64,000 nt of DNA from positions 546 through 64,545 of IMG/VR virus record IMGVR_UViG_3300020048_000137; one strand, 5' to 3'. Within the stretch, counting starts at the first letter, position 1; every line of letters begins with the position of its first letter. This DNA is from a virus (taxonomy: Duplodnaviria; Caudoviricetes). Below are positions 17,835 to 64,000 of this stretch, piece after piece. The position numbers were made by a program, and so were the translations under genes. A model generated the notes under the pieces. The model was not told the origin of the DNA. It ran no database searches and worked only from the letters and a program-made list of their open reading frames with translations.

Positions 17835-18058
17835 GGTTTCCAAAGGTTCTCCCATTGATGATCCTTTACCCACATATATTGCCCATCGTGGAACTTCCAC
17901 CCGCAAGCCTCCGCAATCGCGATTCGTTGTGCTTCTGGGGTCATTTTTGCCTTGTCCATAAGTGCTTGCTTGTTTTCTGCGTCAATTTCTTGTTGCAGCT
18001 TGTATTCTTTCGCGAGTCCCATGTCGTCGCAGTCGGGGTATCCGTTTGTGGTTGTCAT
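17831..18058 (-). CDS. Hypothetical protein
   Basis: MTTTNGYPD...QRIAIAEACGW; start moved to ATG 18058. Confidence 0.55.
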   Translation of the reverse strand: MTTTNGYPDCDDMGLAKEYKLQQEIDAENKQALMDKAKMTPEAQRIAIAEACGWKFHDGQYMWVKDHQWENLWKP

Positions 18059-18099
18059 TTTGTTCGGTTTTGTTCTTTGTTTGTAATGTATTGATGCTA

Positions 18100-18164
18100 A
18101 GAGACTTAGCGAGCGCACGTTTGTAGTGAAATCTTCCTATGGTTGTCATAACAACTTGTTGTGC
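18100..18164 (+). repeat. Array-start half-site, copy 1
   Basis: 54/61 identical to 26958-27018; ends in core GTT. Confidence 0.85.
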
Positions 18165-18457
18165 CAATGAATCTCGCATTCACGTTGCGCGAGTTCCTTT
18201 GACATGTTTGGACGTGGAGCGTTGTTCGGAATATACTCGTATCCTCCGCCGTTGGCAGGAGAGACAACAGCAACCCACCCTGAGTCTCCCGCCGATTTAA
18301 TGACCGAGTAAGTGGTTCCGCAGGGTGTTTTTGCAACCCACATCGGGTTAGCTGTCGCGCAGTCAGTCCATTCTAAAGAAGATGCACAACAAGCCGCAGC
18401 ACGCGGACTTCGAGGAAGTTGGCTCGCAAGATTGGGGGTGTCGGAGATTTCAGTCAT
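18146..18457 (-). CDS. Cassette-borne hypothetical protein starting inside attC
   Basis: ATG in attC loop, reads through inverse core (RAAACCAS), stops at TGA within the half-site. Confidence 0.65.
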   Translation of the reverse strand: MTEISDTPNLASQLPRSPRAAACCASSLEWTDCATANPMWVAKTPCGTTYSVIKSAGDSGWVAVVSPANGGGYEYIPNNAPRPNMSKELAQRECEIHWHNKLL

Positions 18458-18514
18458 TTCGTTTTTTTTTGTTGTTGGTTACGGCCTCGCAGCCCGTGTG
18501 CTTAGACGTTAGCC
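18384..18514 (+). repeat. attC-like site
   Basis: GCACAACAAG...CAGCACGCGG / CCCGTGTGCT...GACGTTAGCC imperfect inverted repeat. Confidence 0.8.
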
Positions 18515-18548
18515 GGAGAACGGAAGACCCACTCTCCGGCTTGGTTGG

Positions 18549-18737
18549 TTATTCCGTCACGGGTGGTTCCGTCTTCCATCCGCCAGCTGGTGGCATGGCG
18601 ACGAGCGCGTTGCGGCTTTCAATGCGGGCGCACGCCGAAGCGATTGCCATGTAGTCGGCCACGTCTTCGGGGTTGAGATTGCCGACGGACATTCCGTATG
18701 CCAACTCCCGTATCTCTTTCAGTTGTTCTGGTGTCAT
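18549..18737 (-). CDS. Cassette-borne hypothetical protein
   Basis: MTPEQLKEIRELAYGMSV... Confidence 0.55.
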   Translation of the reverse strand: MTPEQLKEIRELAYGMSVGNLNPEDVADYMAIASACARIESRNALVAMPPAGGWKTEPPVTE

Positions 18738-18770
18738 ATGTTTATTTGGTTTTTCCGACGCACCCCCAAC

Positions 18771-18857
18771 GGCTAACAAGACGGTGATGGGAACGGCGAG
18801 AAAGTCTATTGTCGGGGCGGAGTCTTGGGGTCGCCGTCCCATACCTCTGCGTTAGGT
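18771..18857 (+). repeat. attC-like site
   Basis: GGCTAACAAG...GATGGGAACGGCGA / TCGCCGTCCCATAC...GCGTTAGGT. Confidence 0.85.
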
Positions 18858-19010
18858 GGAGAGAATCATGTGAACGATTACCGCGCCTGCGAACGCACAC
18901 ATGAGGTTCATGCCGCCAGGAACCTTCATCACTCTTGGTGACAAGGCTCCGATAAATTCGGGAATCATCCAGCCCGTGCAGGCTCCCGCAATGCAATATA
19001 GTATGGTCAT
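18852..19010 (-). CDS. Cassette-borne 52-aa membrane peptide (not in ORF track)
   Basis: MTILYCIAGACTGWMIPEFIG...HMILST; stop TAA is the TTA of the core site. Confidence 0.55.
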   Translation of the reverse strand: MTILYCIAGACTGWMIPEFIGALSPRVMKVPGGMNLMCAFAGAVIVHMILST

Positions 19011-19045
19011 TTTTTCTTTTGGTTCGGTGTTTGAGATAGGTTCGC

Positions 19046-19135
19046 GCCTAACAAGCGGATCGTGGCGACGGCGAGCAAGCCGTCAGATGTGGTTGGGAGT
19101 CTGATTCCGCCGCCGCCACATCCCTTGCGTTAGCG
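19046..19135 (+). repeat. attC-like site
   Basis: GCCTAACAAG...GATCGTGGCGACGGCG / CGCCGCCGCCACATC...GCGTTAGCG. Confidence 0.85.
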
Positions 19136-19525
19136 AAACCTCGCTTCGGTGATGTATAGGCCATCGGAAAACCTCCCTTTGCGGTATCGCACTAGAACTT
19201 TCTGCCCCGTTTGAGCTTCGTCGTGAGTGCGCTCTGAGACTGTTACACTGTCGGAAAGCTCACCCACCCGCATTACTACAGCCCAGCTTTCTGGATGGTA
19301 GATGAACTGAGTCCACCCGCCTCCGTTGCCGTTGCTGTGATAGATAGTCTGCACCCATGCGGGGCTGTAGTTGTGCCCGCAGACTTCGGCGGTGCCTTCA
19401 CGGTCATCAATGAACCATGAGTCAGCGGCACGGAATACACCCCAGCAAACCAGCCAGAGAACGACAGCCACACAAGCGGCCATCAAGAGAGCTAATAGCT
19501 TTTCGAGCCAATCGCCTTTGAGCAT
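19130..19525 (-). CDS. Cassette-borne membrane-anchored protein
   Basis: N-terminal hydrophobic helix then beta-rich (OB-like) domain; stop within core site. Confidence 0.6.
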   Translation of the reverse strand: MLKGDWLEKLLALLMAACVAVVLWLVCWGVFRAADSWFIDDREGTAEVCGHNYSPAWVQTIYHSNGNGGGWTQFIYHPESWAVVMRVGELSDSVTVSERTHDEAQTGQKVLVRYRKGRFSDGLYITEARFR

Positions 19526-19546
19526 GTCGAGAAAATCGGAAATCAT

Positions 19547-19637
19547 CGCTAACAAGAAAAATGCAGACAACCGCCGAGGGGCGTCTGCTGTGTTGATTTA
19601 CGCCCTCGGCGGCGGTGCCTGATTTTTGACGTTCGCA
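19547..19637 (+). repeat. attC-like site
   Basis: CGCTAACAAG...CAGACAACCGCCGAGGGGCGT / ACGCCCTCGGCGGCGGTGCCTG...GACGTTCGCA. Confidence 0.85.
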
Positions 19638-19885
19638 GGACAAATAATCCATTCTTCGCGCTCGCCAGTCAGCGGCACTCGATAGACGGTCACATCAATC
19701 TTGCATTCGTATTGGTCGCGGACGAGTTTCCCAGCCTGTTTCTTGGACTTCGCGGCAACATATTTCCACCATCCTCCCTTGAATGTCTCGTCGGACACGT
19801 CATAGACCAGTGCCTTATACAGCCTCAAAACCTGCGAACAAGGCGTCGCTGATAACGGGGACTCGCCCCGAGTTGAAGTTTTCAT
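19598..19885 (-). CDS. Cassette-borne hypothetical protein starting and ending inside attC sites
   Basis: MKTSTRGESPLSATPCSQ... to ...CPANVKNQAPPPRA. Confidence 0.6.
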   Translation of the reverse strand: MKTSTRGESPLSATPCSQVLRLYKALVYDVSDETFKGGWWKYVAAKSKKQAGKLVRDQYECKIDVTVYRVPLTGEREEWIICPANVKNQAPPPRA

Positions 19886-19953
19886 TTTGGTTTGGTAGTT
19901 GTGGGAGCAGTCAGCGGGCGCTCCCGCCCCCGTATCAGGACTCATCGTTCTCA
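19833..19953 (+). repeat. attC-like site
   Basis: TGCGAACAAG...CTGATAACGGGG / CCCCGTATCAG...ATCGTTCTCA with one extrahelical base. Confidence 0.85.
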
Positions 19954-20141
19954 CCATTCCGCTCATACGCCTTGGAGTCCAGCGGCAGATTGCAGGCGGC
20001 GGCGGAGAGTTCTCGCGTCAGGCTTTCAATCTCCACTTTTGCGCGTTTGAGCATATCGCCCTCCCGGCTGTTCGGGAATGCGTAGCTGCCGTCAGTTTGA
20101 GCGTAGGCGTGATGGATGTTTTCGAGATATACAGATTTCAT
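19935..20141 (-). CDS. Cassette-borne hypothetical protein
   Basis: MKSVYLENIHH...; C-terminus encoded by attC arm. Confidence 0.55.
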   Translation of the reverse strand: MKSVYLENIHHAYAQTDGSYAFPNSREGDMLKRAKVEIESLTRELSAAACNLPLDSKAYERNGENDES

Positions 20142-20173
20142 TGAAATCGGAGCTTGAGATGGTTTCGGAAGAG

Positions 20174-20264
20174 TGAGAACCAGTCAGCGATGGCGACGCC
20201 GAGCAGCGTCCCCATTTAGGTTGGGAGTCCTTTCCCGTCGTCGCGCCTCACATCAGCGTTAGCA
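20174..20264 (+). repeat. attC-like site (last of array 1)
   Basis: TGAGAAC...GATGGCGACG / CGTCGCGCCTCACATC...GCGTTAGCA; central part shared with 30270-30325. Confidence 0.8.
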
Positions 20265-20482
20265 ATATCATGGACAACGAAGGCGCGTTCACTTGTTTCG
20301 GGGTCGTAGGTTCGGATCACGCCAAACCCTTTTTTCAGAGCTTGGTCGATCAGAGCTTCCACTGCGTATTTGAGGCCTCGGATGCTTTCGGCTTGGCAGA
20401 TAGCGTCCTCGGTCAATACAAAGCGCATGGGGAGCTTCGCGAATGGATCAGGCTGGGATATTACGGAATCGTTTGGTTTCAT
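20216..20482 (-). CDS. Hypothetical protein ending inside attC
   Basis: C-terminus ANADVRRDDGKGLPT is attC-encoded. Confidence 0.55.
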   Translation of the reverse strand: MKPNDSVISQPDPFAKLPMRFVLTEDAICQAESIRGLKYAVEALIDQALKKGFGVIRTYDPETSERAFVVHDIANADVRRDDGKGLPT

Positions 20483-20524
20483 CAGAGTTTTCAGGTTGTT
20501 CGGTTTCGCCCATTTGGTGCTGTA

Positions 20525-21007
20525 TCACCACCGTAAAACGGTAGCGTAAAATTCTGAAACCTGGTCGTCGGTAAGTTCCTTAATCACGCTCACCCCGTAT
20601 TTCGCACGGAGGGCGTCGAAGGTGGCCTTCACCGTGCCTTCGGTGTCGGCGAGGAGCTTGCCCTTGATGACCTCCTTCAGCGCGTTGCGAAGTTCGGCGA
20701 CGGGGAGGTCGGGGACTTCGGGTGCAGCTTCGACCGTGCCTCCGCAGTCTTCTTCGGCGGGATGGATGTCGAGGTCGGAGCCGCCGTTCTCTTCGGGGGT
20801 TTCCTCAGCGACGGGTGCAAGGCACTCGGGTTCCGGCTCGGGTTCGACGACGGCGAGCAGTGCGGCTTTCGCGGCACGCTTCTTCGGCGTGGTCGGAACC
20901 AGTGTGTCGGCGGCGGTGACGGCTCCGACGCTCAGGATCTCCCGGAGCGCGGCGGTGTTTTCTTTGAGAGCTTGGGTAAGCTCGGCGAGTTGTTGTTCAA
21001 TGGTCAT
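20525..21007 (-). CDS. Phage protein typical of DUF2800/DUF2815/PolA clusters
   Basis: N-terminal coiled coil, acidic linker, C-terminal helical domain (AKYGVSVIKEL). Confidence 0.6.
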   Translation of the reverse strand: MTIEQQLAELTQALKENTAALREILSVGAVTAADTLVPTTPKKRAAKAALLAVVEPEPEPECLAPVAEETPEENGGSDLDIHPAEEDCGGTVEAAPEVPDLPVAELRNALKEVIKGKLLADTEGTVKATFDALRAKYGVSVIKELTDDQVSEFYATVLRW

Positions 21008-21278
21008 ACGGTGTGTTTCTGGTTAAGTGCCGCCGCGATTGCGAAGGCGGTGAGAGTGGCTGCGATGAGGATGAGTTTCATGTCAGCCTCTTTCCTTGAT
21101 GAGGGTGACAAGAAACCATGTGAAGCAGAGGATGGCGATCCCTTGCACGGCAGGGTGGAACTCGGTAATTACGGTGGCGATCATGGTCGGTCTGAGTTAC
21201 GAAAACAATATGCGGTAATTTGTCAAAATGTCGAGAAGTTTTTTCGGAAATCGTTGGAGGGCTTATGGGGTAAGGGAT

Positions 21279-22046
21279 TCAGATGTCGATGGAGTCCACG
21301 TATGCGCGGTGAATCCGCCCCTGACAGATGGCAAAATACTCCTCGTCGCGCTCGATGCCGATGAAGCGACGACCCGTGTTCATGCAGGCTACGCCCGTCG
21401 TCCCGCTGCCCATCGTGTTGTCGAGGACGAGTTCTTCGGGGTTGGTGTAGGTCTTGGTGAGATACTCCATCAGGGCGACGGGTTTCGCTGTTGGATGGAT
21501 ATTCAGACCGTCGGTTGCAAATTCCAGGACGGTATTAGGGTATCCGGTCTGCTTCTGGACATAAGCTCCGTGGGAAGGACTTTTCCTGAAATGCACATCC
21601 GAATTGCTCTTGCCTTTGTAATCCCGTTTCTCGTTGATTTCGGTCAGACCTTGTGGGAAGTAAGGCATTCTGTTCTCACTCAGATTGGCGTGGTTTGTGG
21701 TGGCCGAACTGAAAACGCACACGTCCTCGTGCTTCTTCATCGGCTTGTTTTTAGCGTGGGCAAAATTCGTCGGGCGGTTCTTCACCCACACCCAGCAATA
21801 CTTGAACATGCTGAGATTCGACGCGATCAGGACACTCGTGAAAGGCTGCGATGCCGTCAGCACAATCGCCGCGTTCTTCTTCGTCACCCGCCGATACGCT
21901 TCCCATAGCGGCTCAAACGGGATGACTGTGTCCCACTTGCACGCAGTCGTCCCATACGGCAGATCGCAGAGGATCATGTCGATGCTCCCGTCGGGAATCT
22001 CTTTCATCCGTTCCAACGTGTCTCCTAGTTTCAGTTCGTAGTTCAT
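21279..22046 (-). CDS. DNA N6-adenine/N4-cytosine methyltransferase (beta class)
   Basis: Catalytic DLPY precedes SAM motif DNTMGSGTTG; HPTAKP. Confidence 0.92.
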   Translation of the reverse strand: MNYELKLGDTLERMKEIPDGSIDMILCDLPYGTTACKWDTVIPFEPLWEAYRRVTKKNAAIVLTASQPFTSVLIASNLSMFKYCWVWVKNRPTNFAHAKNKPMKKHEDVCVFSSATTNHANLSENRMPYFPQGLTEINEKRDYKGKSNSDVHFRKSPSHGAYVQKQTGYPNTVLEFATDGLNIHPTAKPVALMEYLTKTYTNPEELVLDNTMGSGTTGVACMNTGRRFIGIERDEEYFAICQGRIHRAYVDSIDI

Positions 22047-24589
22047 AAATCAGGCATCCTCTCTTCCAAAAGTTCAATCGGGTCATCAAGTCCATCCATA
22101 AACCCGTCGATGCTCACATACACCCGAGTCCGCTCACCGCCGACCTCGAACACCTTTGCGTTCTCGTAAGCACGGTATCCCAAAATGTGCAGGTAATGTG
22201 AAGCCCGTGCATTGTTCCGCCCAAGCAGCGCGGTCTCCCGCTCGACCTGTGCGTAGTGGATCACGTCCTTCCCGATCAGGGGATACGCGGGGTCGGCGAT
22301 GAGGTCTTCGATCTGGATGAGCATGGGGTTCTTGCCAGCATCGACAAGCTCATGGCGGAACACGGTGTCGGGGGCGTGGCCGTTCGGATTGAATGTTTCG
22401 CTGATCTGATATGTCAGGTAGAACTGGCGGAACGCACCGGGGTTATCCCTTATCAGGTCGTGAATCCGTGTGCAGACGCCCGTGTTCAGGAACGCGACGA
22501 CCTGCGACTTCGATTGCAAGCGGCTTTTCAGGATCATGTATCTGCGGTCGCTGTCCTCCAGCACCAGTGCGTCGTGTTTATTTGATGTCACGAAGTAGTT
22601 CGTGACGTTCACGATGTTCCGCAGGTCGCGGAACTTCTGCTGGACGGGGATGCGGTCGTTCGCGATGGCGTCCTTCAAACTGTTGTTGACTTCGTGACGG
22701 TTCGACCCCGCCGAGAAAAGCTCGTCGATGTAATTGAGATGTACACCTTCGCGCCACTCGTCGAACCCGCTGCCCGTCATCTTCGACCCTGTGATGATCC
22801 TGAAATTGGCTTCACCGATGGCGGCTTGCACGGTGTCCATGAGGGTTCCCTTGCCGCAGCCCTGCCCACCTTGGAGGAACGGCGACCACCGGATCTTGTG
22901 ACCCGGACGCTGGACGCAGTAGGCGAGCCAGTCGAGGACGTGGCGAACGTGGTTCTCGTCGGCGAGGTTCGCCCGTAGCAGGGCTAGGATGAGGTTGCCC
23001 GCCCGCTCGGCACCGATGGGGGAAGCGGACGGCACGGAGGACTTCAGGTAGGTGTTCACGAACCACTTGCCGTCCCGCTCAAAGTAAATGTCGTCGCCCT
23101 TTTTCTCCTTGTCCCCGTCGAACGCTTCGCGGGGATCATACACCGAGTCGTCCACGATCTTGATCCCTGCGGTGAACAGGGCATACGAGGATGCGGAGAT
23201 CGGGACATCGCCGTCCGGGGTGACGAGGTTCCGCCCGAACGTGTGGTTGAAAGCATCGGTGGTGTATTCCGCCCCAGTGACAGTGTTCCTGAAACGGTCA
23301 CGCGGACCTATGAAGCAGAACGGCAGCATCCAGGATGGTTTCTCGGCCTTCGCGCCGTCGTGCTTCTCCTGCCTGCGGAGACGTTTCATGTCCTTGAGGA
23401 TGGATGTCTTGCTGACCGACTTCCCGGATCGCTTGACCGCTTTCACGATCATGTCGGCCATCATCTCCTCGTCGGTGTCGGACGGTATGGGGAGCGCGGC
23501 GATCTTGCGGATGCCTTCCCGCAGCACGGTGTCCCCGTCCGTCGCCTCGCACCACTGCGAGAAAGCCGCGACGATTCCGTTAGTGAGTTTCTCGTGCGTC
23601 CACCCGGACTGCATGGCGTGGTGGAACAGGGTGCGGAGGGTGATCGGGTTCCGGCCTTCGGGGTAGGGCTTGAAGCTGCGCCACTTCAGGAGACACTCGT
23701 CCCTGTCCTTGTACTTCGCACCCTGCGACGACCATTCGTGGAACATCTCGAACGCTTCGCGGGCGATGTCCTCCTCGGTGAACTGGTGGCGGAGGGCTGC
23801 GGCGATCTCATACCACTCTCGGTAGCCGCAGTCAGCCGAGATGGCGTAGAGAGGTTCCCGGATGTCGTCGAGCGACATACCCGTTAAGGGTAGATTCAGG
23901 ATGCTGCCCTCCTTCATGTCACCCGCCTCGGGGGTGTAGGCATACCCGCTATCGTCCGGTGTAGGTGACTCGGTCGTCTCGGGCAGGGTCGTAGCGTCGA
24001 GCCGCTTCCCGTCGAGGCGGTCTGCGATCACGGCGTTGTAGTCCTCCCCCTGAAAGTGAAGGGGGCGGTATTGGGGCTGTGAGATGATGAGGGACTCGGG
24101 CTTGCCTTTGAAGGAAGCGGGGAGTCCGAGCAGCCCGATGACGTGCAGCACGGCACGCTTGAATAGCGCGGGTTCCACCGTTAGGCAGTCCACCATGATC
24201 TTGATGCGCGGCTCTGCGGGCGTATGCTTCGCTGTCGTCCATGCCACGAAGTTGTAGGGTGACAGGGCTTCGCGGATCGTGTCCGGCGAATTGAAAAAGT
24301 CGGCGGCTTCCGCACCGTCGAGGTCGATGATGATGAGGTTGAACCCCGTCGCACTTTCGTTCAGCCTTGCACACTCATCTTCTGGGTAAGTGGCAGCACC
24401 GAGCCACGCGCCGTCCTTCAGCTTGTCCCTGTCCGGGTGTGCAAGGAAGTCCCGACGCTTCATCGGGAACGCGACGGGAACGTGGACTTGCGACTGCACG
24501 AGATCCTTGAACGTCTCGGCGGCGAGGAGGCGGACGCGGCCACCTTGAACACTGCGACCACCAAAGAAGCGTGTGGGGGTGTCACTCAT
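22043..24589 (-). CDS. Primase-helicase (PriCT_2-like plus SF3/DUF5906-like ATPase)
   Basis: YREWYEIAAAL...WSSQGAKY; Walker A GGQGCGKGT; NYIDEL; DSDRRY. Confidence 0.88.
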   Translation of the reverse strand: MSDTPTRFFGGRSVQGGRVRLLAAETFKDLVQSQVHVPVAFPMKRRDFLAHPDRDKLKDGAWLGAATYPEDECARLNESATGFNLIIIDLDGAEAADFFNSPDTIREALSPYNFVAWTTAKHTPAEPRIKIMVDCLTVEPALFKRAVLHVIGLLGLPASFKGKPESLIISQPQYRPLHFQGEDYNAVIADRLDGKRLDATTLPETTESPTPDDSGYAYTPEAGDMKEGSILNLPLTGMSLDDIREPLYAISADCGYREWYEIAAALRHQFTEEDIAREAFEMFHEWSSQGAKYKDRDECLLKWRSFKPYPEGRNPITLRTLFHHAMQSGWTHEKLTNGIVAAFSQWCEATDGDTVLREGIRKIAALPIPSDTDEEMMADMIVKAVKRSGKSVSKTSILKDMKRLRRQEKHDGAKAEKPSWMLPFCFIGPRDRFRNTVTGAEYTTDAFNHTFGRNLVTPDGDVPISASSYALFTAGIKIVDDSVYDPREAFDGDKEKKGDDIYFERDGKWFVNTYLKSSVPSASPIGAERAGNLILALLRANLADENHVRHVLDWLAYCVQRPGHKIRWSPFLQGGQGCGKGTLMDTVQAAIGEANFRIITGSKMTGSGFDEWREGVHLNYIDELFSAGSNRHEVNNSLKDAIANDRIPVQQKFRDLRNIVNVTNYFVTSNKHDALVLEDSDRRYMILKSRLQSKSQVVAFLNTGVCTRIHDLIRDNPGAFRQFYLTYQISETFNPNGHAPDTVFRHELVDAGKNPMLIQIEDLIADPAYPLIGKDVIHYAQVERETALLGRNNARASHYLHILGYRAYENAKVFEVGGERTRVYVSIDGFMDGLDDPIELLEERMPDL

Positions 24590-26399
24590 GCGGGATTACC
24601 TCCATGCAGATTTCGATAAACATGGCTGCGAGCGGGGCTACGATGGAATTCCCGTAACCCTTCAAGCGCATCACCCTTGCTTCCGACGTTTCGTTGGCAT
24701 AGCCCGGTGCGCCCGGATCGCAGCTTGGCACCACTCCACGGGGTAGCCCTGCAACCAACGGGGCAGAGCCGCGTTGAGTACGCCGGGCTTTGCCGTCGCG
24801 GCAGGGGATGAGGTCAAAGTCTGACCAGAATCCAGTCCGTCGGGGTCGGTGAGCTTCGCCTGATGACCGAGCATCTGCTGCATCTTCGACCCCGGCAGAC
24901 CCGCTGCGTCGTCGTTCGCTGACGGCGTGAGCCATCCGCTGATCTGCTTCGGCTGAGTCAGTCCAACTTGTCGCCCCAGCTGGTCGAGCCTGTTGCGGAT
25001 GCTGCCGTCCGGGTTCACTCCCGTCTCCGACATTCCCGGCGAGTCCTTGTGATCCCTCGCTCCGGGTGTCGCCCATCCAGCGAGCGTAAAGCACTCCGTC
25101 GCGCTCGTCATAATCGTACCCATCTTGGATGGGGCCGGGACATTCGCAGTCCTCGGCGTAGGTGAGTCCGCAGATGGAGCATTCGTCTCCGGGTTCATCG
25201 TCGCCCCCTCCGAGGCAGTCAGCGGCGAAGGATACGCGTTTCCAACCATCACTGATGCCTGTTCCCCCAAATTCCCCGGCACATACTGGCGACCCATCGA
25301 CTCTCGGTAAGCTATCCGCTTCTCCATCCCCTCTTTCGTGCGAGTCATATTCGTGGTTGTGGGGGTCATCCATCCGCAGATTGGCATCGCAGCCTGCGCC
25401 TCGTGAGTCAGACCCACTTGGGCAAGCCGTCCCGTGATCTTGTCGTAAGCCCTCTGCCCCGGTGTCCACGGGTTGCCCTCCGAGTCCACAAGTCTGTCGA
25501 GGCTGACTCCCGGCTCCGACGTTGCGGGGCTGCGCCATCCGGTGATCGGTGGTTCGGTCAGATGTTGCGCTGTGTGCGCCAGTTGCGATGAATGGTTCGG
25601 TCTCGCCATCCACCGCGCCGAGTATGCTTGTGGATCGCTGCTCCTGGATGCGTTCACGTCCGCGCAGTTCGGTGTCGGCCATCCTGCTATTGGTTGACTC
25701 GCAGCTTCCGCTGCCAGATTCATCTGACCGCCGCCCTTGCGTTTCGCGAAGTGAACCTTCTCGCAGTTGTCCGTGGTCTTCGGAGTGTTCGGAGTGTTCG
25801 GAGTGTTCGGAGTGTTCGGAGTGTTCCACCCCACGATATGCGACCCAGTAGAGCCGCTGCCGGATGTGGGGTGCCCCGATGACGATTCGCTCCCAAGTCT
25901 CCTGATCTCCACGCACAAGCCGTCCTTCGCCGTCCTCCCCCGCGCACGGAGCGCATAGATCGAGGGCTGTGACGGGATAGCCCATTGCTTGCAAGTCCAG
26001 ACATACTCCGGGGAACCATTTTTCCCTTGCAATCTTGCTGCTAACTTGTTCGCCAATAAGGACTGGAGGTCGGCACTCGCTGACAAGGCGTTGAAAGACA
26101 GGCCAGAGGTGTCGCTCGTCGTCGGTTCCTGCTTGCTTTCCGGCGGATGAGAAGGGCTGACATGGGAGGCTGGCTGTCCACACGGGTCGGTCGTCCGGCC
26201 ATCCTGCGAGCTTGAGGGCGAGACTCCAGCCTGATACTCCAGCGAACCAATGTGCCTGCGTAAAACCGCGCAGATCGGATGGTTCGACTTCAGTAATGCT
26301 TCGATCATCGACATGTCCGTAAGGTATTTGTTTGTCCGCGATAAGCTGGCGTACCCACGCCGCTGCCGTTGGACAAAATTCGTTGTAATATGATGCCAT
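24582..26399 (-). CDS. C5-cytosine DNA methyltransferase, large (alpha) chain
   Basis: Motif I FAGVSG, IV LPCQPFS, VI GEQV, VIII HIRQRLYW, X LKGYGNSIV; no motif IX in this frame. Confidence 0.85.
   Translation of the reverse strand: MASYYNEFCPTAAAWVRQLIADKQIPYGHVDDRSITEVEPSDLRGFTQAHWFAGVSGWSLALKLAGWPDDRPVWTASLPCQPFSSAGKQAGTDDERHLWPVFQRLVSECRPPVLIGEQVSSKIAREKWFPGVCLDLQAMGYPVTALDLCAPCAGEDGEGRLVRGDQETWERIVIGAPHIRQRLYWVAYRGVEHSEHSEHSEHSEHSEDHGQLREGSLRETQGRRSDESGSGSCESTNSRMADTELRGRERIQEQRSTSILGAVDGETEPFIATGAHSATSDRTTDHRMAQPRNVGAGSQPRQTCGLGGQPVDTGAEGLRQDHGTACPSGSDSRGAGCDANLRMDDPHNHEYDSHERGDGEADSLPRVDGSPVCAGEFGGTGISDGWKRVSFAADCLGGGDDEPGDECSICGLTYAEDCECPGPIQDGYDYDERDGVLYARWMGDTRSEGSQGLAGNVGDGSEPGRQHPQQARPAGATSWTDSAEADQRMAHAVSERRRSGSAGVEDAADARSSGEAHRPRRTGFWSDFDLIPCRDGKARRTQRGSAPLVAGLPRGVVPSCDPGAPGYANETSEARVMRLKGYGNSIVAPLAAMFIEICMEVIPHE
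24671..26314 (-). CDS. Nested alternative-frame ORF, putative MTase beta chain (547 aa)
   Basis: Open over 1.6 kb in +1 frame; repeated W-x-[TS]-P modules; motif IX-like LNAALPRWLQGYPVEW. Confidence 0.72.
   Translation of the reverse strand: MSMIEALLKSNHPICAVLRRHIGSLEYQAGVSPSSSQDGRTTDPCGQPASHVSPSHPPESKQEPTTSDTSGLSFNALSASADLQSLLANKLAARLQGKNGSPEYVWTCKQWAIPSQPSIYALRARGRTAKDGLCVEIRRLGSESSSGHPTSGSGSTGSHIVGWNTPNTPNTPNTPNTPKTTDNCEKVHFAKRKGGGQMNLAAEAASQPIAGWPTPNCADVNASRSSDPQAYSARWMARPNHSSQLAHTAQHLTEPPITGWRSPATSEPGVSLDRLVDSEGNPWTPGQRAYDKITGRLAQVGLTHEAQAAMPICGWMTPTTTNMTRTKEGMEKRIAYRESMGRQYVPGNLGEQASVMVGNAYPSPLTASEGATMNPETNAPSADSPTPRTANVPAPSKMGTIMTSATECFTLAGWATPGARDHKDSPGMSETGVNPDGSIRNRLDQLGRQVGLTQPKQISGWLTPSANDDAAGLPGSKMQQMLGHQAKLTDPDGLDSGQTLTSSPAATAKPGVLNAALPRWLQGYPVEWCQAAIRAHRAMPTKRRKQG
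25779..25823 (+). repeat. Tandem repeat (TTCGGAGTG)x5
   Basis: Exact 9-bp unit; encodes (HSE)5 in one frame and NTP repeats in the other. Confidence 0.95.
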
Positions 26400-26405
26400 A
26401 TAGGT

Positions 26406-26606
26406 TCACGCTCCCTCCCCAGTGAGGTAGTCCTCTAACATCTGAGCGTCATTGAAAGACATTTTCTCAGTCTCACCTTTCAGGACGCGGCGCAGACGGT
26501 AATAGCCTATGCCTGTGAGGGTGGACAAAAGGGAAACTGCCACTCCAGTTTTTTCAATATGAGAGCGGGTGCGGTTAATGATATTCTCAGTCGGATCGTC
26601 AGTCAT
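26406..26606 (-). CDS. Small HTH (XRE/Cro-like) regulator
   Basis: AVSLLSTLTGIGYYRLRRVLKGE...MSFNDAQMLEDYL. Confidence 0.6.
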   Translation of the reverse strand: MTDDPTENIINRTRSHIEKTGVAVSLLSTLTGIGYYRLRRVLKGETEKMSFNDAQMLEDYLTGEGA

Positions 26607-27007
26607 GGTGCGGGAGACAGGGTGGTTGTTTGGTGTTTTGGTGTCAATGGCTTTTTTGCAAATTTCTTTCCGAGTAGAACCGGACGGACTTTTTCCAGTA
26701 TCCACGCCATGCCATGAGGCTTCGACTTCCACCCATCTGGCGTGCGTAAGCGGAAATTATTGATGCGATCTCCGCGCTCAATCACCCAAGAGGTGACTTT
26801 ACCAGATGCAAAGTCGTGGTATCGGATCGAGCCTAGCGCGGAACCTTCCCGCAGCGGCGGATTCATTTCCAATTCGCGCAAAACTTCCGGCGTAATCTCT
26901 GCCAGTCGCCGATCACGCTGCACCTGCTGTGATCGCTTTCCCATAGCACTCATTCTTAGAGACTTAGCGAGCGCACGTTTGCGGGAGAATCTTCCCATGG
27001 TTGTCAT
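26603..27007 (-). CDS. Hypothetical protein starting in array-2 half-site
   Basis: MTTMGRFSRKRALAKSL...; ATG overlaps TGA of upstream antisense ORF. Confidence 0.6.
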   Translation of the reverse strand: MTTMGRFSRKRALAKSLRMSAMGKRSQQVQRDRRLAEITPEVLRELEMNPPLREGSALGSIRYHDFASGKVTSWVIERGDRINNFRLRTPDGWKSKPHGMAWILEKVRPVLLGKKFAKKPLTPKHQTTTLSPAP

Positions 27008-27022
27008 AATAACTTGTTCGGC
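26958..27022 (+). repeat. Array-start half-site, copy 2
   Basis: Colinear copy of 18100-18164. Confidence 0.85.
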
Positions 27023-27067
27023 AGAGAAATTTTTTGTTTCCACAAGACATAGATAAGGATCGCGGCC

Positions 27068-27793
27068 ATGCCCCAAAACGACAAGCAGACGCAACCAGCA
27101 AAGAATGCCGCACCCCATAATAAAACAATGTCTGAATCTATCGAATGGTGGTCTGTATTCTGGGCTGTTTCTGGCTTAGTTCTAGGTGGAGCTGTAGCCA
27201 TTGTCGCATTTGTGGCTTTCTTTTTTTCATGGAAGGCAGGCAAACTCAAGGATGCGGAGTTCAAATTATACAAGGAGGACTCTGCAAAAGCTGTCGCCTC
27301 GGCAGACGCTACGGCGGCAGACGCTAACAAGATCGCGGCAAAGGCTAATGAACGAGCAGCAAACCTTGAGAAAGAAGCCGCTGACAGCCGCCTAGAACTT
27401 ATGAAGCTACAGCAGAAGCTCGCATGGCGCATCATCGAAGAACCTGCACGGAATGCCTTCTTCAATGCCACGGCAACCGTGCCAAAAGCTAAAATCCAAA
27501 TTTCATATCTATCAAATAGTGAGGAGGTTTTAAACTTTACAGCGCAGCTTGTAGAGATGTTTAGAGAGGCTGGATATGATTGCCCAAAATCTTTCGATGA
27601 AATGGGTTCTTTTATGCCAATGGGGCTTGCGATAGGGCTAGTAATCACCGTCAGAGACGAGAGCCACCAAGAGGGAGCGCAATTCCAGCACGCTTTAATG
27701 CGTGCTGGAATTGAAGCGTCAGTCCGATTTATTTCCGAGATTGGCAATGACGACATTCTTCTTGAGATCGGAGCTAAACCATCAAATAAATAA
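27068..27793 (+). CDS. Top-strand cassette gene: TM helix, coiled coil, globular domain
   Basis: Stop immediately before inverse core; AT-richer than phage core; start may be ATG 27128. Confidence 0.75.
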   Translation: MPQNDKQTQPAKNAAPHNKTMSESIEWWSVFWAVSGLVLGGAVAIVAFVAFFFSWKAGKLKDAEFKLYKEDSAKAVASADATAADANKIAAKANERAANLEKEAADSRLELMKLQQKLAWRIIEEPARNAFFNATATVPKAKIQISYLSNSEEVLNFTAQLVEMFREAGYDCPKSFDEMGSFMPMGLAIGLVITVRDESHQEGAQFQHALMRAGIEASVRFISEIGNDDILLEIGAKPSNK

Positions 27794-27917
27794 GCCGAAC
27801 AAGGCGGCGCATACAGCCCGCCGCCCGCTGTTGAATCAAAGTTACTCATGATTACTCTCCTTTCCGTCCATACGTCCGCGCTGAGTGGCAGCGGTTGCAT
27901 GGCCTAAGACGTTCGTT
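27794..27917 (+). repeat. attC-like site
   Basis: GCCGAACAAGGCGGCGCATACAGCCCGCCGCC / GGCAGCGGTTGCATGGCCTAAGACGTTCGTT. Confidence 0.9.
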
Positions 27918-27945
27918 AAGAAATTTTTCATAATACAAAATCGAG

Positions 27946-28215
27946 ATGAGATTAAAAGACAAGATACTGGTCGCCGCTGTGGCATTGCTGATTATCACTT
28001 GGTTGATCCCACCCACTAATGATGTGCAACAAGTTTATCGTTACAGGAAAGTGGAGGCAGTAGAGGAGTTTGTAGGATTCCATTTTATTTTCTTCAAAGA
28101 CCGGTATCGAAGAGAACTCAAGATTGATTGGGCGAAGCTGTCGTTGCTGAATCTGGCCATTTTGGGTGCAGGTGGGGCGGCATATTTTCTGGTTTCTAAG
28201 AAGGGTGAATTATGA
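27946..28215 (+). CDS. Top-strand cassette gene, 2-TM membrane protein
   Basis: Hydrophobic N- and C-terminal helices. Confidence 0.65.
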   Translation: MRLKDKILVAAVALLIITWLIPPTNDVQQVYRYRKVEAVEEFVGFHFIFFKDRYRRELKIDWAKLSLLNLAILGAGGAAYFLVSKKGEL

Positions 28216-28577
28216 GTGAGTTGCCTGAGACCCTAGACGAGTGGCGCGATCACTACATCCCGCAAGGATTGGAAGTCATAGAAGCGGTAGTCAACCACTC
28301 CAATAAGGTCGGGAATCAACGCCTTGGTGCGGTAGCGGCTAAGGTTCATCTGGAGCGGGCGCGTCACGAGGATCTGCTTCGTAAGATTGCGGAATCTGGG
28401 AAGCACCATTGGTCGGCGACTCCTGGGTTTTGGGTAGCTGTTGGCGGATTTCTTCTAGCTGGTCTTGCAGCATGGTTTGCTTGGCAGTCAATACCTCATC
28501 CCACGCCGCAAGACGCAGGTTCCCAACCGAGTTCATCACCGACGCCGCCCCCAACAGTATCACCGACGCCCCCGTAA
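28212..28577 (+). CDS. Top-strand cassette gene, membrane protein with Pro-rich tail
   Basis: ATGA-coupled second ORF in same cassette. Confidence 0.65.
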   Translation: MSELPETLDEWRDHYIPQGLEVIEAVVNHSNKVGNQRLGAVAAKVHLERARHEDLLRKIAESGKHHWSATPGFWVAVGGFLLAGLAAWFAWQSIPHPTPQDAGSQPSSSPTPPPTVSPTPP

Positions 28578-28588
28578 TAATGAAGAGT

Positions 28589-28713
28589 AACGAACAAGGC
28601 GGCGCATTGCAACCCGCCCCCCGCTTTCCATTCAGGTCGCTCACTTGTCACCTCTCTTTCCGTGCTGCGGAGTGCGCTGAGTGGGAGCGGGTGCATGGCC
28701 TTTGACGTTAGCC
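28589..28713 (+). repeat. attC-like site
   Basis: Close relative of 27794 and 29220 sites. Confidence 0.9.
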
Positions 28714-28733
28714 ATGAAAGAAGAGTTCCCATT

Positions 28734-29225
28734 ATGAGCGCCACCGACCTCGCGAAAGACGCGATCCGCATTGTCAGCACCGCCGGACTCAGCAAAGATG
28801 TTATCGACCTTCTCAGCCTGAAGATCACGCTTCTGGATGACAAGATTTCGATGCTCTCGCAGGAGGTTCTCACGCTCACGCAGGAGGTTCTTACTCTCAA
28901 GGGTAAGAATTTTGACCTTCTTCGAGAGCTTGAAGAGCTTAAAAAGCAGAAGGGCGACTTGTCCCCATTTCCTGATGGATTCGACGACACGACGAACAGG
29001 ATTGTTGACACGATGTTTGGTGCTCGGGATGTTTCCAAGGAGGATATTGCCGGACATTTGGGAATTGAGTTTGGAGTTGCGGAGTATCATTTCGATTTAT
29101 TGTTGAGGGAGAGTTTTATATACCAGACTAGGATAGGCATGACTTTCAATCATGGACGAACCCCGGCGGGATTCAGTTTGACACCTGAAGGGCGAGCATA
29201 TGCCGTCAAAATGAAGAAAGGCTAA
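28734..29225 (+). CDS. Top-strand cassette gene: coiled coil plus winged-helix-like domain (163 aa)
   Basis: Start ATG 28734; FSLTPEGRAY wing motif; stop is inside inverse core. Confidence 0.7.
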   Translation: MSATDLAKDAIRIVSTAGLSKDVIDLLSLKITLLDDKISMLSQEVLTLTQEVLTLKGKNFDLLRELEELKKQKGDLSPFPDGFDDTTNRIVDTMFGARDVSKEDIAGHLGIEFGVAEYHFDLLLRESFIYQTRIGMTFNHGRTPAGFSLTPEGRAYAVKMKKG

Positions 29226-29344
29226 CAAGGCGGCGCATTGCAACCCGCTGCCCGCTGTGGAATCAAAGTTACTCATGGTCACTCTCCTTTCCGGTTATCG
29301 ACCCGCGCTGAGTGGCAGCGGGTGCATGGCCTTTGACGTTCACC
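29220..29344 (+). repeat. attC-like site
   Basis: GGCTAACAAGGCGGCGCATTGCAACCCGCTGCC / GGCAGCGGGTGCATGGCCTTTGACGTTCACC. Confidence 0.9.
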
Positions 29345-29616
29345 AGAGATTCCGTGGCGACGTTTTCCAGTTCTTCGAAAGTCGGTTCGCGGAACCGTCC
29401 GCATTGGAATCCTGGCTCGATTCCGTGTTGGTTAGGTCGGTTCTCCAGTTCGCGGAGTAGCACGGCGCATGTCCCGCGCAGCTTCCAGTCTTGGGCTGGC
29501 ACGATGTTCCGCACCGTGTAGATGTTTCCTTTGCGTGGGAGCGCGTTGAAGATGTCGTTGATTCCAGCAGGGAATCGGTCTTCGATGCAGACCACTTTGG
29601 CGTTGATGTCGAACAT
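29269..29616 (-). CDS. Bottom-strand cassette gene (phage-type hypothetical, SH3-like)
   Basis: KVVCIED...IYTVR...RFRE; ends inside attC loop. Confidence 0.65.
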   Translation of the reverse strand: MFDINAKVVCIEDRFPAGINDIFNALPRKGNIYTVRNIVPAQDWKLRGTCAVLLRELENRPNQHGIEPGFQCGRFREPTFEELENVATESLVNVKGHAPAATQRGSITGKESDHE

Positions 29617-29647
29617 GGTTTTTGAGTCGTTAGGTGATTCGGAAGAA

Positions 29648-29737
29648 GGTGAACAAGTCGTGGGTGGTCAACCGCCGGGAACGTCTTTCGGCAAAGCGGA
29701 GCCCAGCGTCGGCGGTGCCACCACTGGAACGTTCGGG
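29648..29737 (+). repeat. attC-like site
   Basis: GGTGAACAAG...GTGGGTGGTCAACCGCCG / CGGCGGTGCCACCAC...AACGTTCGGG. Confidence 0.85.
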
Positions 29738-30072
29738 CAATAGACTTCCAGCGCGTCATTGGCCGGGCGCGGTAGGTGGCCGACGATTTCACGCCAGCCG
29801 GTGATCGCTTCCCATCGGGCAACGCACGGATCGGATGGCGGAAGGTCGAGATAGTTCCGGCGGATGAGGTAAGTATCCCCTTCGTTTAGATTCACGGACC
29901 GGACGTTCATCCACGCGCCACTGTCGCCAAGACGCTTGAGCATATCGGAGATTGCTTCCGCGATTGAGATTTTCCGGGCTGCATCGGATCGTAGCACGGA
30001 AGCCTTATCCTTTAATGCCCGAACAATGCGTCGCTGATCGACGGGCTGAATCGTTCCATTTTCTTCACTCAT
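29668..30072 (-). CDS. Bottom-strand cassette gene starting and ending inside attC sites
   Basis: MSEENGTIQPVDQRRIVRA...; SD-like AAGGA in attC arm. Confidence 0.65.
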   Translation of the reverse strand: MSEENGTIQPVDQRRIVRALKDKASVLRSDAARKISIAEAISDMLKRLGDSGAWMNVRSVNLNEGDTYLIRRNYLDLPPSDPCVARWEAITGWREIVGHLPRPANDALEVYCPNVPVVAPPTLGSALPKDVPGG

Positions 30073-30116
30073 CGGCTTTTCCTTTTTCGCCTGCGTCAGG
30101 ACTTTTTGCGTTCATC
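30018..30116 (+). repeat. attC-like site
   Basis: CCCGAAC...CTGATCGACGGGC / GCCTGCGTCAG...GCGTTCATC with two extrahelical bases. Confidence 0.8.
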
Positions 30117-30219
30117 AAGAATGGAGATGGATAATCAGGGCTATCACCGCTCCAGCGAATAGCGAACCCGCGACGATGATGAATGTGCCAAGTTGCCAGT
30201 CTATTTTAGTTCCGTGCAT
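30115..30219 (-). CDS. Cassette-borne 34-aa single-TM peptide (not in ORF track)
   Basis: MHGTKIDWQLGTFIIVAGSLFAGAVIALIIHLHS; stop in core site. Confidence 0.5.
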   Translation of the reverse strand: MHGTKIDWQLGTFIIVAGSLFAGAVIALIIHLHS

Positions 30220-30252
30220 TTGTTGTGGCGTTGGTTGGTTTTAAATAAAGAT

Positions 30253-30325
30253 GATGAACAAGTTTGTAGAGGCGACGACGGGCAGCGTCCCCATTTAGGT
30301 TGGGAGTCCTTTCCCGTCGTCGCGC
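30253..30325 (+). repeat. Truncated attC-like site
   Basis: Inverse core GATGAAC and centre shared with 20174 site, but right L'/R' arm absent. Confidence 0.7.
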
Positions 30326-30675
30326 GATTGCTCGGCGTCCACTCGGTTCAAGGCGTCTGCTGCGGTGTCAAAATAGCCAAGGCTTTTTGTTCCGATCCGA
30401 GCTTGATATGGCTTGCGATAAAAAACGTTCGGCGGGAGCTTGGCACTCCCTGGAGACAGCGTCTTTGGTCGCCCTGCTTTCGCGTCGCTGAAAACTGCAC
30501 CTTCAGTGATTAACTTCTCATACGCGATGTCACGGTGAGCGCGTGCAAGGGTTTCGTCGGTCGTATTTAACGCGATGCGCCGCTGAATGCCGTCCTCGCG
30601 GAATAATAGAAACCACCTCCCCCTTACGCAGACGAGCCCGTGGTTTGGTTTATTGGATTTGTAGAGCTGGATCAT
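30295..30675 (-). CDS. DNA-binding protein (integrase-arm/AP2-like beta-sheet domains)
   Basis: RGRWFLLFREDG-RRIAL-TTD and YQARIG...LGYFDTAADA; no catalytic recombinase domain. Confidence 0.5.
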   Translation of the reverse strand: MIQLYKSNKPNHGLVCVRGRWFLLFREDGIQRRIALNTTDETLARAHRDIAYEKLITEGAVFSDAKAGRPKTLSPGSAKLPPNVFYRKPYQARIGTKSLGYFDTAADALNRVDAEQSRDDGKGLPT

Positions 30676-31404: not shown

Positions 31405-31582
31405 GGTGTTATTTCGTCAAAACCCCCTCTTCCTCGGCGCAACGGATGATGTCCGCCATCGCTGCCCGAATGCTATGGGATTACTTCATGTAATTACCTC
31501 CATTGGTTGTGCGCCCGTAATAGGGGCTGGCACCCCGAAACCCGCTGGCTCTTGCGAACTCAGCGGGCGGGTCAAAGCGAAG

Positions 31583-31925
31583 TGGACATAGGGAGAGTCG
31601 AACTCCCGTCCTCGATGCGCGTCTTTGTCAGTCTCTACATGCTTAGTCCTTTCGGACGTTAGGGCGAACGGTTTCCTGCTCACCTCCACCACTCCGTCTT
31701 TACGGCTCGGAGTTCCGTTGTTTGCCCGGTTTGTTTCTCACCGCAGCGCGGGCGTTTCGGTGAGCGTGTTTTGCTTAGGCTACGAGAGCAACTGTGTTGC
31801 TTCCGAAGTTTCCGCGAATGACGTTGTTGCCATTTTTACTTTTGATCGGCTTTTCAGGAGGCCAACCGATCAACCTCCACATGCAACTGACAGATGGCGC
31901 ATCAAGTCGAAACCAGAATATGCCC
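31583..31925 (-). ncRNA. ssrA: tmRNA
   Basis: 5' GGGCAUAUUCUGGUUUCGAC; 3' T-arm GGGAGUUCGACUCUCCC and UAUGUCCA; G3-U70 pair; tag GNNVIRGNFGSNTVALVA-stop (31831-31775). Confidence 0.92.
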
Positions 31926-63430: not shown

Positions 63431-63517
63431 AACGAACGTCATAGGCCATGTGCGCCGCGATGAACTCCAACCAGATCAGACGCCTTCAACGGCGTCGCAT
63501 GTGCCGCCTTGTTCGCT
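63431..63517 (-). repeat. attC-like site
   Basis: + strand AACGAAC...GGCCATGTGCGCCG / CGGCGTCGCATGTGCC...CTTGTTCGCT, two extrahelical bases. Confidence 0.85.
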
Positions 63518-63594
63518 TGGTCTTTTTCACGATGCACGCCAAACCGCCGCATTGGCACCGACAAATGGGGAACTTCCTCGGGGGACTGAAGAGC

Positions 63595-63864
63595 TTAGGC
63601 GTTCGACGGCTTCGGTTCGTGAGTTTTTATGGTCTTGTAGTCCGCCACACTTGCGACATAAACGCCCGACCCGTCTTGGATTGTGGCTGCGACAGTCGCA
63701 AGCAGGTCGTCTAGTTCAAACTCTGTGTCTGTGGTTATATGATACACAGCTCCGTGTATATGAAAGTGTGGTTGGAACTGCTGCATCAGAGCGTGATAGG
63801 CGCGATAATCGGCTAAGTTACCTTTTGGATTTAGAGAGATGGCGTAGCGGTATTCCGAGTTCAT
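63595..63864 (-). CDS. Top-strand cassette gene, possibly ferredoxin-fold (Cas2/VapD-like pattern)
   Basis: 89 aa within cassette; YAISL...Y..L...YHITT pattern; fold is a guess. Confidence 0.55.
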   Translation of the reverse strand: MNSEYRYAISLNPKGNLADYRAYHALMQQFQPHFHIHGAVYHITTDTEFELDDLLATVAATIQDGSGVYVASVADYKTIKTHEPKPSNA

Positions 63865-63895
63865 GCGTGGAGTTGGAGTTCAGGGATTATTTTTT

Positions 63896-63982
63896 AGCGA
63901 ACGACCAAGTGGAGGCACGCCGGAAATGAATACCGAATCCAAGAAAGACGTTATCGGCGTTGCCTCGCACGCCTTGTTCGGC
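63896..63982 (-). repeat. attC-like site
   Basis: + strand AGCGAAC...TGGAGGCACGCCG / CGGCGTTGCCTCGCA...CTTGTTCGGC, two extrahelical bases. Confidence 0.85.
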
Positions 63983-64000
63983 TCTTCTGTTTTGATTCGG

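Follow-up and report, generated by a model that had tools for sequence, protein, structure and literature searches.

A putative attI-like docking site for cassettes at the start of a conserved gene in integrase-less phages

Integrons are regarded as bacterial gene-capture devices made up of an integrase, an attI site and cassettes. The virus record IMGVR_UViG_3300020048_000137 (Duplodnaviria; Caudoviricetes) carries two arrays of integron-type cassettes, each headed by one copy of a 67-nt repeat that corresponds to the start of a phage gene, here termed Y, with a short attI-like core at its outer edge that is a candidate entry point for the cassettes. The analysis was made on a window of 64,000 nt (positions 546 to 64,545 of the record; coordinates below are those of the window), which covers nearly all of the 64,545-bp IMG/VR record, rated as 100% complete by CheckV. 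The "terminal repeat" of the record is a 46-nt overlap, and the contig therefore closes on itself. The minus strand between 12.6 and 31 kb encodes a replication module, with a DNA polymerase, a PD-(D/E)XK-type protein, a primase-helicase (PriCT_2/DUF5906) and two methyltransferases.

The two copies of the repeat, A (18094..18160) and B (26952..27018), both on the minus strand, align over 67 nt at 87% identity with a repeat finder and over 68 nt at 88% with blastn, and share a 24-nt exact core that occurs in only these two places in the window, where shuffled sequences predict none. An earlier reading of the letters and open frames (hereafter the sequence-only reading) had described the segments 18100-18160 and 26958-27018 as 54/61 identical, and our count of seven differences over 61 nt agrees. 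On the minus strand both copies read AAC AAG TTR TTA TGA, overlapping an ATG ACA ACC that begins MTT(I/M)GRF..KRALAKSL, and the TTATGA stop/start and the peptide given in that reading were legible in each; on the top strand both copies end 3' in AACTTG|TT. Copy B is the native 5' end (first ~19 codons) of an intact gene, Y1 (26603..27007, minus strand, 134 aa), with the attI-like core at the outer edge. The gene had been called long at 27007 and apparently a remnant at 18149, and the comparison with other proteins bears this out: Y1 has 13 homologues in a large protein collection, with N-termini M(R/T)T.GRFSRKRALAKSLRMSAMGKRSQ conserved as protein, whereas in copy A the homology ends after about 20 codons and gives way to unrelated sequence next to the core. 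In copy A, with its Y-type ATG at 18149, seven of the nine base differences fall within five codons with a changed residue, which indicates a decaying remnant without protein constraint. This copy may derive either from duplication of the Y-site module followed by loss of the second Y gene, or from import along with its array. The gene that follows the remnant likewise starts with ATGACAACCA (MTTT...; compare 18049-18058 with 18140-18149, minus strand), with GAACAAA ahead of the start, which could reflect either chance or one more degenerate copy of the Y start.

Only a small part of the repeat behaves as a feature of the DNA itself. Across relatives, synonymous sites in codons 1-20 of Y are not consistently better conserved than those in the remainder of the gene, so that the length of 61 bp is the footprint of a duplication rather than the size of a functional site. 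The DNA-level feature is limited to the outer 12-14 nt of the repeat, ATAA(Y)AAC-TT-G|TT, and the rest is mostly Y coding sequence. We considered and rejected the possibility that the whole 61 bp forms an extended attI with accessory repeats, given the lack of a synonymous-site excess in codons 1-20 and of the GATAT motif of the host. The resemblance to an attC left arm noted in the sequence-only reading did not hold: no partner arm was found within 160 nt, the arm scores of the two copies were 0 and 6 against 13-25 in the 12 real attCs and a window median of 10, and the copies, folded as single strands, gave weak structures (-3.7 to -8.5 kcal/mol) that lack the inverted repeat of an attC.

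Each copy is followed on its right by six attC sites, imperfect inverted repeats 87-131 nt in length that start xxxxAAC-AAG and end ...G|TTxxxx. The integron rule requires the 7 nt from the upstream G|TT to match, as reverse complement, the R'' box in the cassette's own attC. It is obeyed by 12/12 cassettes, both repeat junctions included, with a single mismatch in cassette 3 of array A. Core A, CATAACAACTTG|TTGTGC (18147..18164, plus strand), has its crossover between 18158 and 18159, and its junction 7-mer, GTTGTGC, equals GCACAAC, the R'' box of attC a1 (18384), in reverse complement; core B, CATAATAACTTG|TTCGGC (27005..27022, plus strand), has its crossover between 27016 and 27017, and its 7-mer GTTCGGC is the reverse complement of GCCGAAC in attC b1 (27794). 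The proposal that the GTT of the element opens the first cassette is therefore exact to the nucleotide. In a chain test anchored on the junction rule, chains reached a length of 6 in the real window but did not exceed 2 in any of ten shuffled windows.

Array A (18159..20258, six cassettes) has its cassette genes on the minus strand and follows the rule exactly in 5/6 cassettes; its attCs, from R'' start to R' end, occupy 18384-18514, 18771-18857, 19046-19135, 19547-19637, 19833-19953 and 20174-20264. Array B (27017..30346, six cassettes) follows it exactly in 6/6, a count read by eye, as the automatic chain chose another R' for b1, and its attCs occupy 27794-27917, 28589-28713, 29220-29344, 29648-29737, 30018-30116 and 30253-30352. 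The 5' (R''-L'') arm of the attCs is 2 nt longer than the 3' arm, as extrahelical bases predict, and the plus strand is therefore the attC top strand in both arrays, which places the repeat at the attI end of each. The cassette proteins belong to no recognisable family, and a scan with Rfam, in a library that holds no attC model, returned only a transfer-messenger RNA (tmRNA).

No integron integrase or other tyrosine recombinase was detected in the complete phage genome (no match to TIGR02249 or PF00589), nor was a tyrosine recombinase found in the complete record of the relative L001; the integrase in the record of L013 is Xer-like, not IntI. With six attCs per array in the same orientation and no integrase nearby, both arrays are clusters of attC sites lacking integron integrases (CALINs, defined by two or more such attCs), and the phage, having no intI, does not unite intI, attI and cassettes in one element as a complete integron does. 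The position held by intI in integrons is occupied here by Y1, the conserved neighbour of the site. The Y family had no match in Pfam, NCBIfam or PHROG. The AlphaFold2 model of Y1 (predicted local distance difference test, pLDDT, 78) had no match in the PDB with Foldseek at E <= 0.001, VIA-align matched the long N-terminal helix alone (Z <= 5) and gave no informative fold match, and a score of 0.82 against the ESM Atlas was uninformative. Derivation of Y from the N-terminal extension of host IntI was also considered and rejected, the Y profile matching nothing in 30 host intI loci (E > 1).

The exact 24-nt core of the repeat had no match in IMG/VR, and relatives were therefore sought through the Y protein. 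Loci came from IMG/VR (L001, L011, L012, L013), metagenome assemblies (L002-L010, L015-L017) and a metagenome-assembled genome (MAG) of Luteolibacter (L018), with only four loci contributed by the metagenome and genome scans; two further Y contigs (P0002, P0004) were used as gene maps only and stand outside the DNA comparison. The resulting set comprised 14 distinct Y loci, namely the two described here and L001, L002, L006/7, L008, L009, L010, L011, L012, L013, L015, L016/17 and L018. In all 14, at Y identities of 41-95%, the top strand beside Y reads ATAA(Y)AAC (once AATAAG), 2-3 nt, then G|TT, and the sequence past G|TT is unrelated between loci. The core is kept also where the ATG of Y lies 9-12 nt further on (L001, L006, L012, L016). 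The gene neighbourhoods vary, from the replication module in this phage and in L002 to a small terminase in L003 and a Mu F-like gene or Mu-type portal elsewhere, and Y, site and array therefore travel together.

Cassettes were chained to the core in 10/10 loci for which the upstream sequence extends to about 850 nt or more. The chains comprise 7-8 cassettes in L001, 7 in L011, 6-7 in L013, 2 in L015, and at least 1 in L012, L002, L016/17 and L018; the R'' of the first cassette is complementary to the junction also in L001, L002, L011, L012, L013, L015, L016 and L018. The identity of the first cassette changes between close relatives. L007 and L008 encode one and the same Y protein and match at 100% from GAAC onward, with unrelated sequence on the other side, and L015, with a Y that is 95% identical, has different cassettes at the same G|TT and an R'' that matches the junction. 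Contigs from two further samples of the source study bridge the core B junction as in the window. In a run from another study, a ~90% identical contig diverges directly past 27018, and another contig has the repeat joined to the left flank seen at copy A, which would place the two-copy arrangement in a relative as well; both contigs are short and of low depth, and this part of the evidence is thin. Because the first cassette is replaced while the integron rule is kept, recombination at the site itself is required, and cassette variation at the GTT of the element, which the sequence-only reading had called for, is seen in these comparisons. New cassettes enter repeatedly at the Y-linked site.

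The phage probably infects a freshwater verrucomicrobium from the Luteolibacter family. A Mu-like prophage region with Y (L018) sits in a Luteolibacter MAG that also has an IntI above the curated cut-off, as do 36/81 sampled genomes of the family of that MAG, and the phage attCs are 72-88% identical to attCs in Luteolibacter-family genomes, one match being the first attC of a chromosomal integron. Seven host attI junctions were located by the rule alone, 570-615 nt upstream of the conserved IntI domain, and read ...TAAT(A/T)A..(C)TG|TT or TAATTAACG|TT; a search at this same spacing from intI yielded five others. One of these five, L054, carries AAATAACTTG|TT, the phage core, with up to 11 nt identical; the consensus is TAATAAaACTG|TT for attI of the Luteolibacter family and ATAATAAC(N)TG|TT for the phage. 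An AT-rich attI-type box within 11 nt was present at 21/1996 GTT sites of the window and at 0/12 internal attC ends. A Shewanella-type attI that heads a CALIN in prophage M16-3 ends in ...CACTAATAAAATGTT (PMC9892861). Because the core so closely resembles attI cores in the host clade and in Shewanella, the term "non-canonical" applied to the site in the sequence-only reading is not warranted, and the core would be of the kind that the cognate integrase recognises. The family IntI genes at eight host loci (L019, L039, L042, L044, L045, L047, L048 and L049) are open frames of 440-500 aa against a 315-position model, and the same loci have attI at a nearly constant 589-618 nt ahead of the conserved domain and a (C/G)TGATAT-like motif about 35 nt before the crossover.

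The position of the site also bears on expression of the cassette genes. The stop of the frame that reads AAC AAG overlaps the ATG of Y in 11/14 loci and lies 6-8 nt upstream of it in the other 3, and this AAC frame is the longest incoming open frame in most of the 14. The right-hand ends of the arrays show what the frame may have been before insertion. Gene X2, right of array A (20216..20482, minus strand), has a tail ...RRDDGKGLPT* encoded in the last attC, and gene X1, right of array B (30295..30675, minus strand), has the same borrowed tail, ...RDDGKGLPT*. Precise in-silico removal of each array at its outer G|TT points gives ...DIANKLL* for X2 and ...ADALNKLL* for X1, that is ...NKLL* for both, with the stop overlapping a Y-type ATG. 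The tails lie in a second, sharply bounded repeat (20192..20246 and 30271..30325; 96% identity over 55 nt) that makes up the middle of the final attC in both arrays and, on the minus strand, provides two unrelated genes with RDDGKGLPT*, a stop and a TAAATG restart. A 26-nt arm (19835-19859 and 30020-30045) is also common to the penultimate attCs of both arrays, and arrays A and B may descend from one array.

It is plausible that the site allows translational coupling of Y-strand cassette genes to Y, and coupling, which the sequence-only reading had extended to the downstream operon, is compatible with the stop/ATG arrangement conserved in the 14 loci for genes on that strand. It does not appear to apply to the first three cassettes of array B, which appear to carry plus-strand genes. 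The first of these cassettes is open on both strands, with 298 codons in the AAC frame on the minus strand (27004-27900), where a GGAGAG box within the attC precedes the start, and with a plus-strand frame of 241 codons (27068-27793); the plus-strand protein, with a transmembrane helix and a coiled coil, appears to be the real one, by composition only. A consensus scan of the repeat found no Pc-like promoter for the plus-strand cassettes of array B. A third array runs from 63434 to 64000 and across the contig ends to about position 168, and here the minus strand is the top strand of the attCs. The proximal junction of this array, AGCTAAC|CCCGTCG... at 162-168, departs from the rule by one mismatch. 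It is not a Y-type core and lies directly against a terminator-like hairpin, after which comes a T-run.

Taken together, these features make it probable that an attI-like site at the outer edge of Y, used through a host IntI acting in trans, builds and renews the arrays. Under this model the repeat is the start of Y, and the short double-stranded site ATAA(Y)AAC-N2-3-G|TT at its outer edge would act like an attI. During infection, the host IntI would recombine the folded attCs of free cassettes with the phage site at G|TT, the site itself presumably being recombined as duplex DNA, and an array would be built and renewed just upstream of Y, at two sites with six cassettes each in this genome. 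Copy B belongs to the intact Y, and copy A would be what is left, some 67 nt, of a partial duplicate. As the Y strand reads AAC AAG TTR TTA TGA, an in-frame incoming cassette gene would stop over the ATG of Y, and translational coupling would be possible and may matter to the phage. The sequence-only reading had proposed a reusable attI-like docking site, and this is supported by the crossover at G|TT, the core at all Y loci examined, the turnover of cassettes at the core and the likeness to host attI; the size of 61 bp gives way to a functional unit of ~12-14 nt.

Several points weigh against this interpretation. The likeness to attI spans only about 12 nt, and the phage sites are homologous to one another, so that statistically it amounts to roughly one coincidence (about 1%) plus conservation. 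The accessory motif of host attI (GATAT ~35 nt upstream) is absent from the repeat. No empty site was seen among the Y loci examined, and the ancestral state is reconstructed only indirectly. The core overlaps coding sequence in many loci (the upstream tail NKLL* and the Y start), which could add to its conservation, although the core also persists where Y starts 9-12 nt further on. The third array, which begins at a terminator-like hairpin and lacks the core, shows that arrays can also form at other places and that the core is not the sole entry point for cassettes. Finally, the identities of host and enzyme are themselves deduced, and the evidence of the contigs from the other study (X5) is thin.

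The alternative that fares best, which we nonetheless consider unlikely, is that an ancestor gained a host attI core with cassettes by illegitimate recombination, so that the site would be an attI by descent that was fused to the start of Y. The identity of up to 11 nt with the attI of L054 would be explained in this way, the phage attCs belong to host attC families, and a cryptic prophage of Shewanella, M16-3, offers a precedent in its CALIN headed by a host-type attI (PMC9892861). The likeness ends at the core, however: the left side has no host resemblance, as the Y profile finds nothing in the 30 host intI loci, and GATAT is missing. A length of 12 nt cannot separate descent from convergence, and a captured attI would function in the same way as the site proposed here.

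Somewhat less probable again is a one-off insertion at a secondary site, in which a single ancestral IntI event struck an ordinary GTT (attG) with no special affinity for IntI, the array was then inherited, and the repeat is a segmental duplication of its left flank. IntI uses many genomic GWT sites as duplex DNA (Loot et al., bioRxiv 10.1101/2022.09.11.507474), and G|TT fits the minimal GWT consensus of attG. Duplication alone would account for the 61-bp identity, the 96%-identical core of the terminal attCs and the similar arm of the penultimate ones fit a common ancestral array, and the third array begins at an unrelated site. A single event would not, however, leave different first cassettes in phages with identical or 95%-identical Y, with the break exactly at G|TT, nor an R'' that matches the junction wherever the first attC is readable, L015 included; for this, recombination at the site must have recurred. 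The core is also like attI of the host clade, as is true of only about 1% of GTT sites, and is kept down to 41% Y identity, even outside the Y coding sequence; conservation in 14 loci together with likeness to attI exceeds what has been published for attG. That the repeat is an ordinary duplication of a gene start, a paralogous 5' end kept as a ribosome-loading or coupling signal beside repeats that are not integron cassettes, is very improbable: the repeat is indeed mostly coding sequence of a conserved protein and TTATGA overlaps are common in phages, but the cassette rule holds at 12/12 junctions here and at dozens in relatives, the asymmetry of the attC arms and their likeness to host attCs point to integron cassettes, and copy A is free of protein constraint, with its differences concentrated in residue-changing codons.

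Two other features of the genome may be recorded. The phage encodes the tmRNA at 31580-31925 (minus strand; Rfam RF00023, 120 bits, full length), and an open reading frame for a C5 cytosine methyltransferase (605 aa; 24582-26399, minus strand) overlaps a second open frame of 547 aa and contains a 9-nt tandem repeat at 25768-25830.

Phage CALINs have so far been reported as rare and mostly unexplained clusters. Comparison with known systems places the site described here between several of them. With the attI of chromosomal integrons in Shewanella and the Luteolibacter family it shares a position at the integrase-proximal array end, crossover at G|TT, a first-cassette R'' that matches the junction, a left box of the AT-rich TAATAA type that precedes the G by 2-5 nt, and the geometry of a gene (intI there, Y here) transcribed away from the array. 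It differs from them in having no adjacent divergent intI, its neighbour Y being a protein of 110-134 aa without known family, in overlapping the start codon of that neighbour, in being present in two copies in one genome and in lacking the host-type upstream motif. CALINs in phages are known, and IntI1 has been shown to act on the attCs of such phages (Qi et al. 2023, PMC9892861). The present arrays are likewise attC clusters in phage DNA without an integrase. M16-3, however, is a cryptic prophage that also holds a complete integron (PMC9892861); here, by contrast, the site is conserved across an integrase-less phage family, is tied to one phage gene, and comes with direct comparative evidence for cassette turnover. 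Cassettes are also placed outside integrons at duplex G(W)T positions in attG sites, from which attI has been proposed to have evolved (Loot et al., bioRxiv 10.1101/2022.09.11.507474), but such sites are abundant and weakly defined and in most cases see a single use, whereas the phage site is conserved, attI-like and reused. We found no description in the literature of a conserved, gene-linked attI mimic in integrase-less phages.

Here, the place and manner of cassette entry into a phage genome would be accounted for by a defined and conserved site. If the proposed mechanism is correct, these phages would keep the cheap part of the integron, the docking site, and borrow the enzyme, as is suggested by the sharing of the site down to 41% Y identity, its reuse and its likeness to host attI. 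The site would then offer a case from nature of the path by which attI is proposed to have arisen from genomic hotspots. The cassette pool of bacterial hosts is rich in defence genes. Phages of this kind would have rapid access to that pool and could act as carriers of cassettes between hosts. More tentatively, and with less confidence than we attach to the site itself, freshwater Verrucomicrobiota phages may maintain an integrase-less integron platform, with Y in place of intI, a start-codon attI mimic and arrays of 6-8 cassettes renewed by host IntI in trans, through which they would tap the host cassette pool, and in which Y may bind the site or recruit or modulate IntI.

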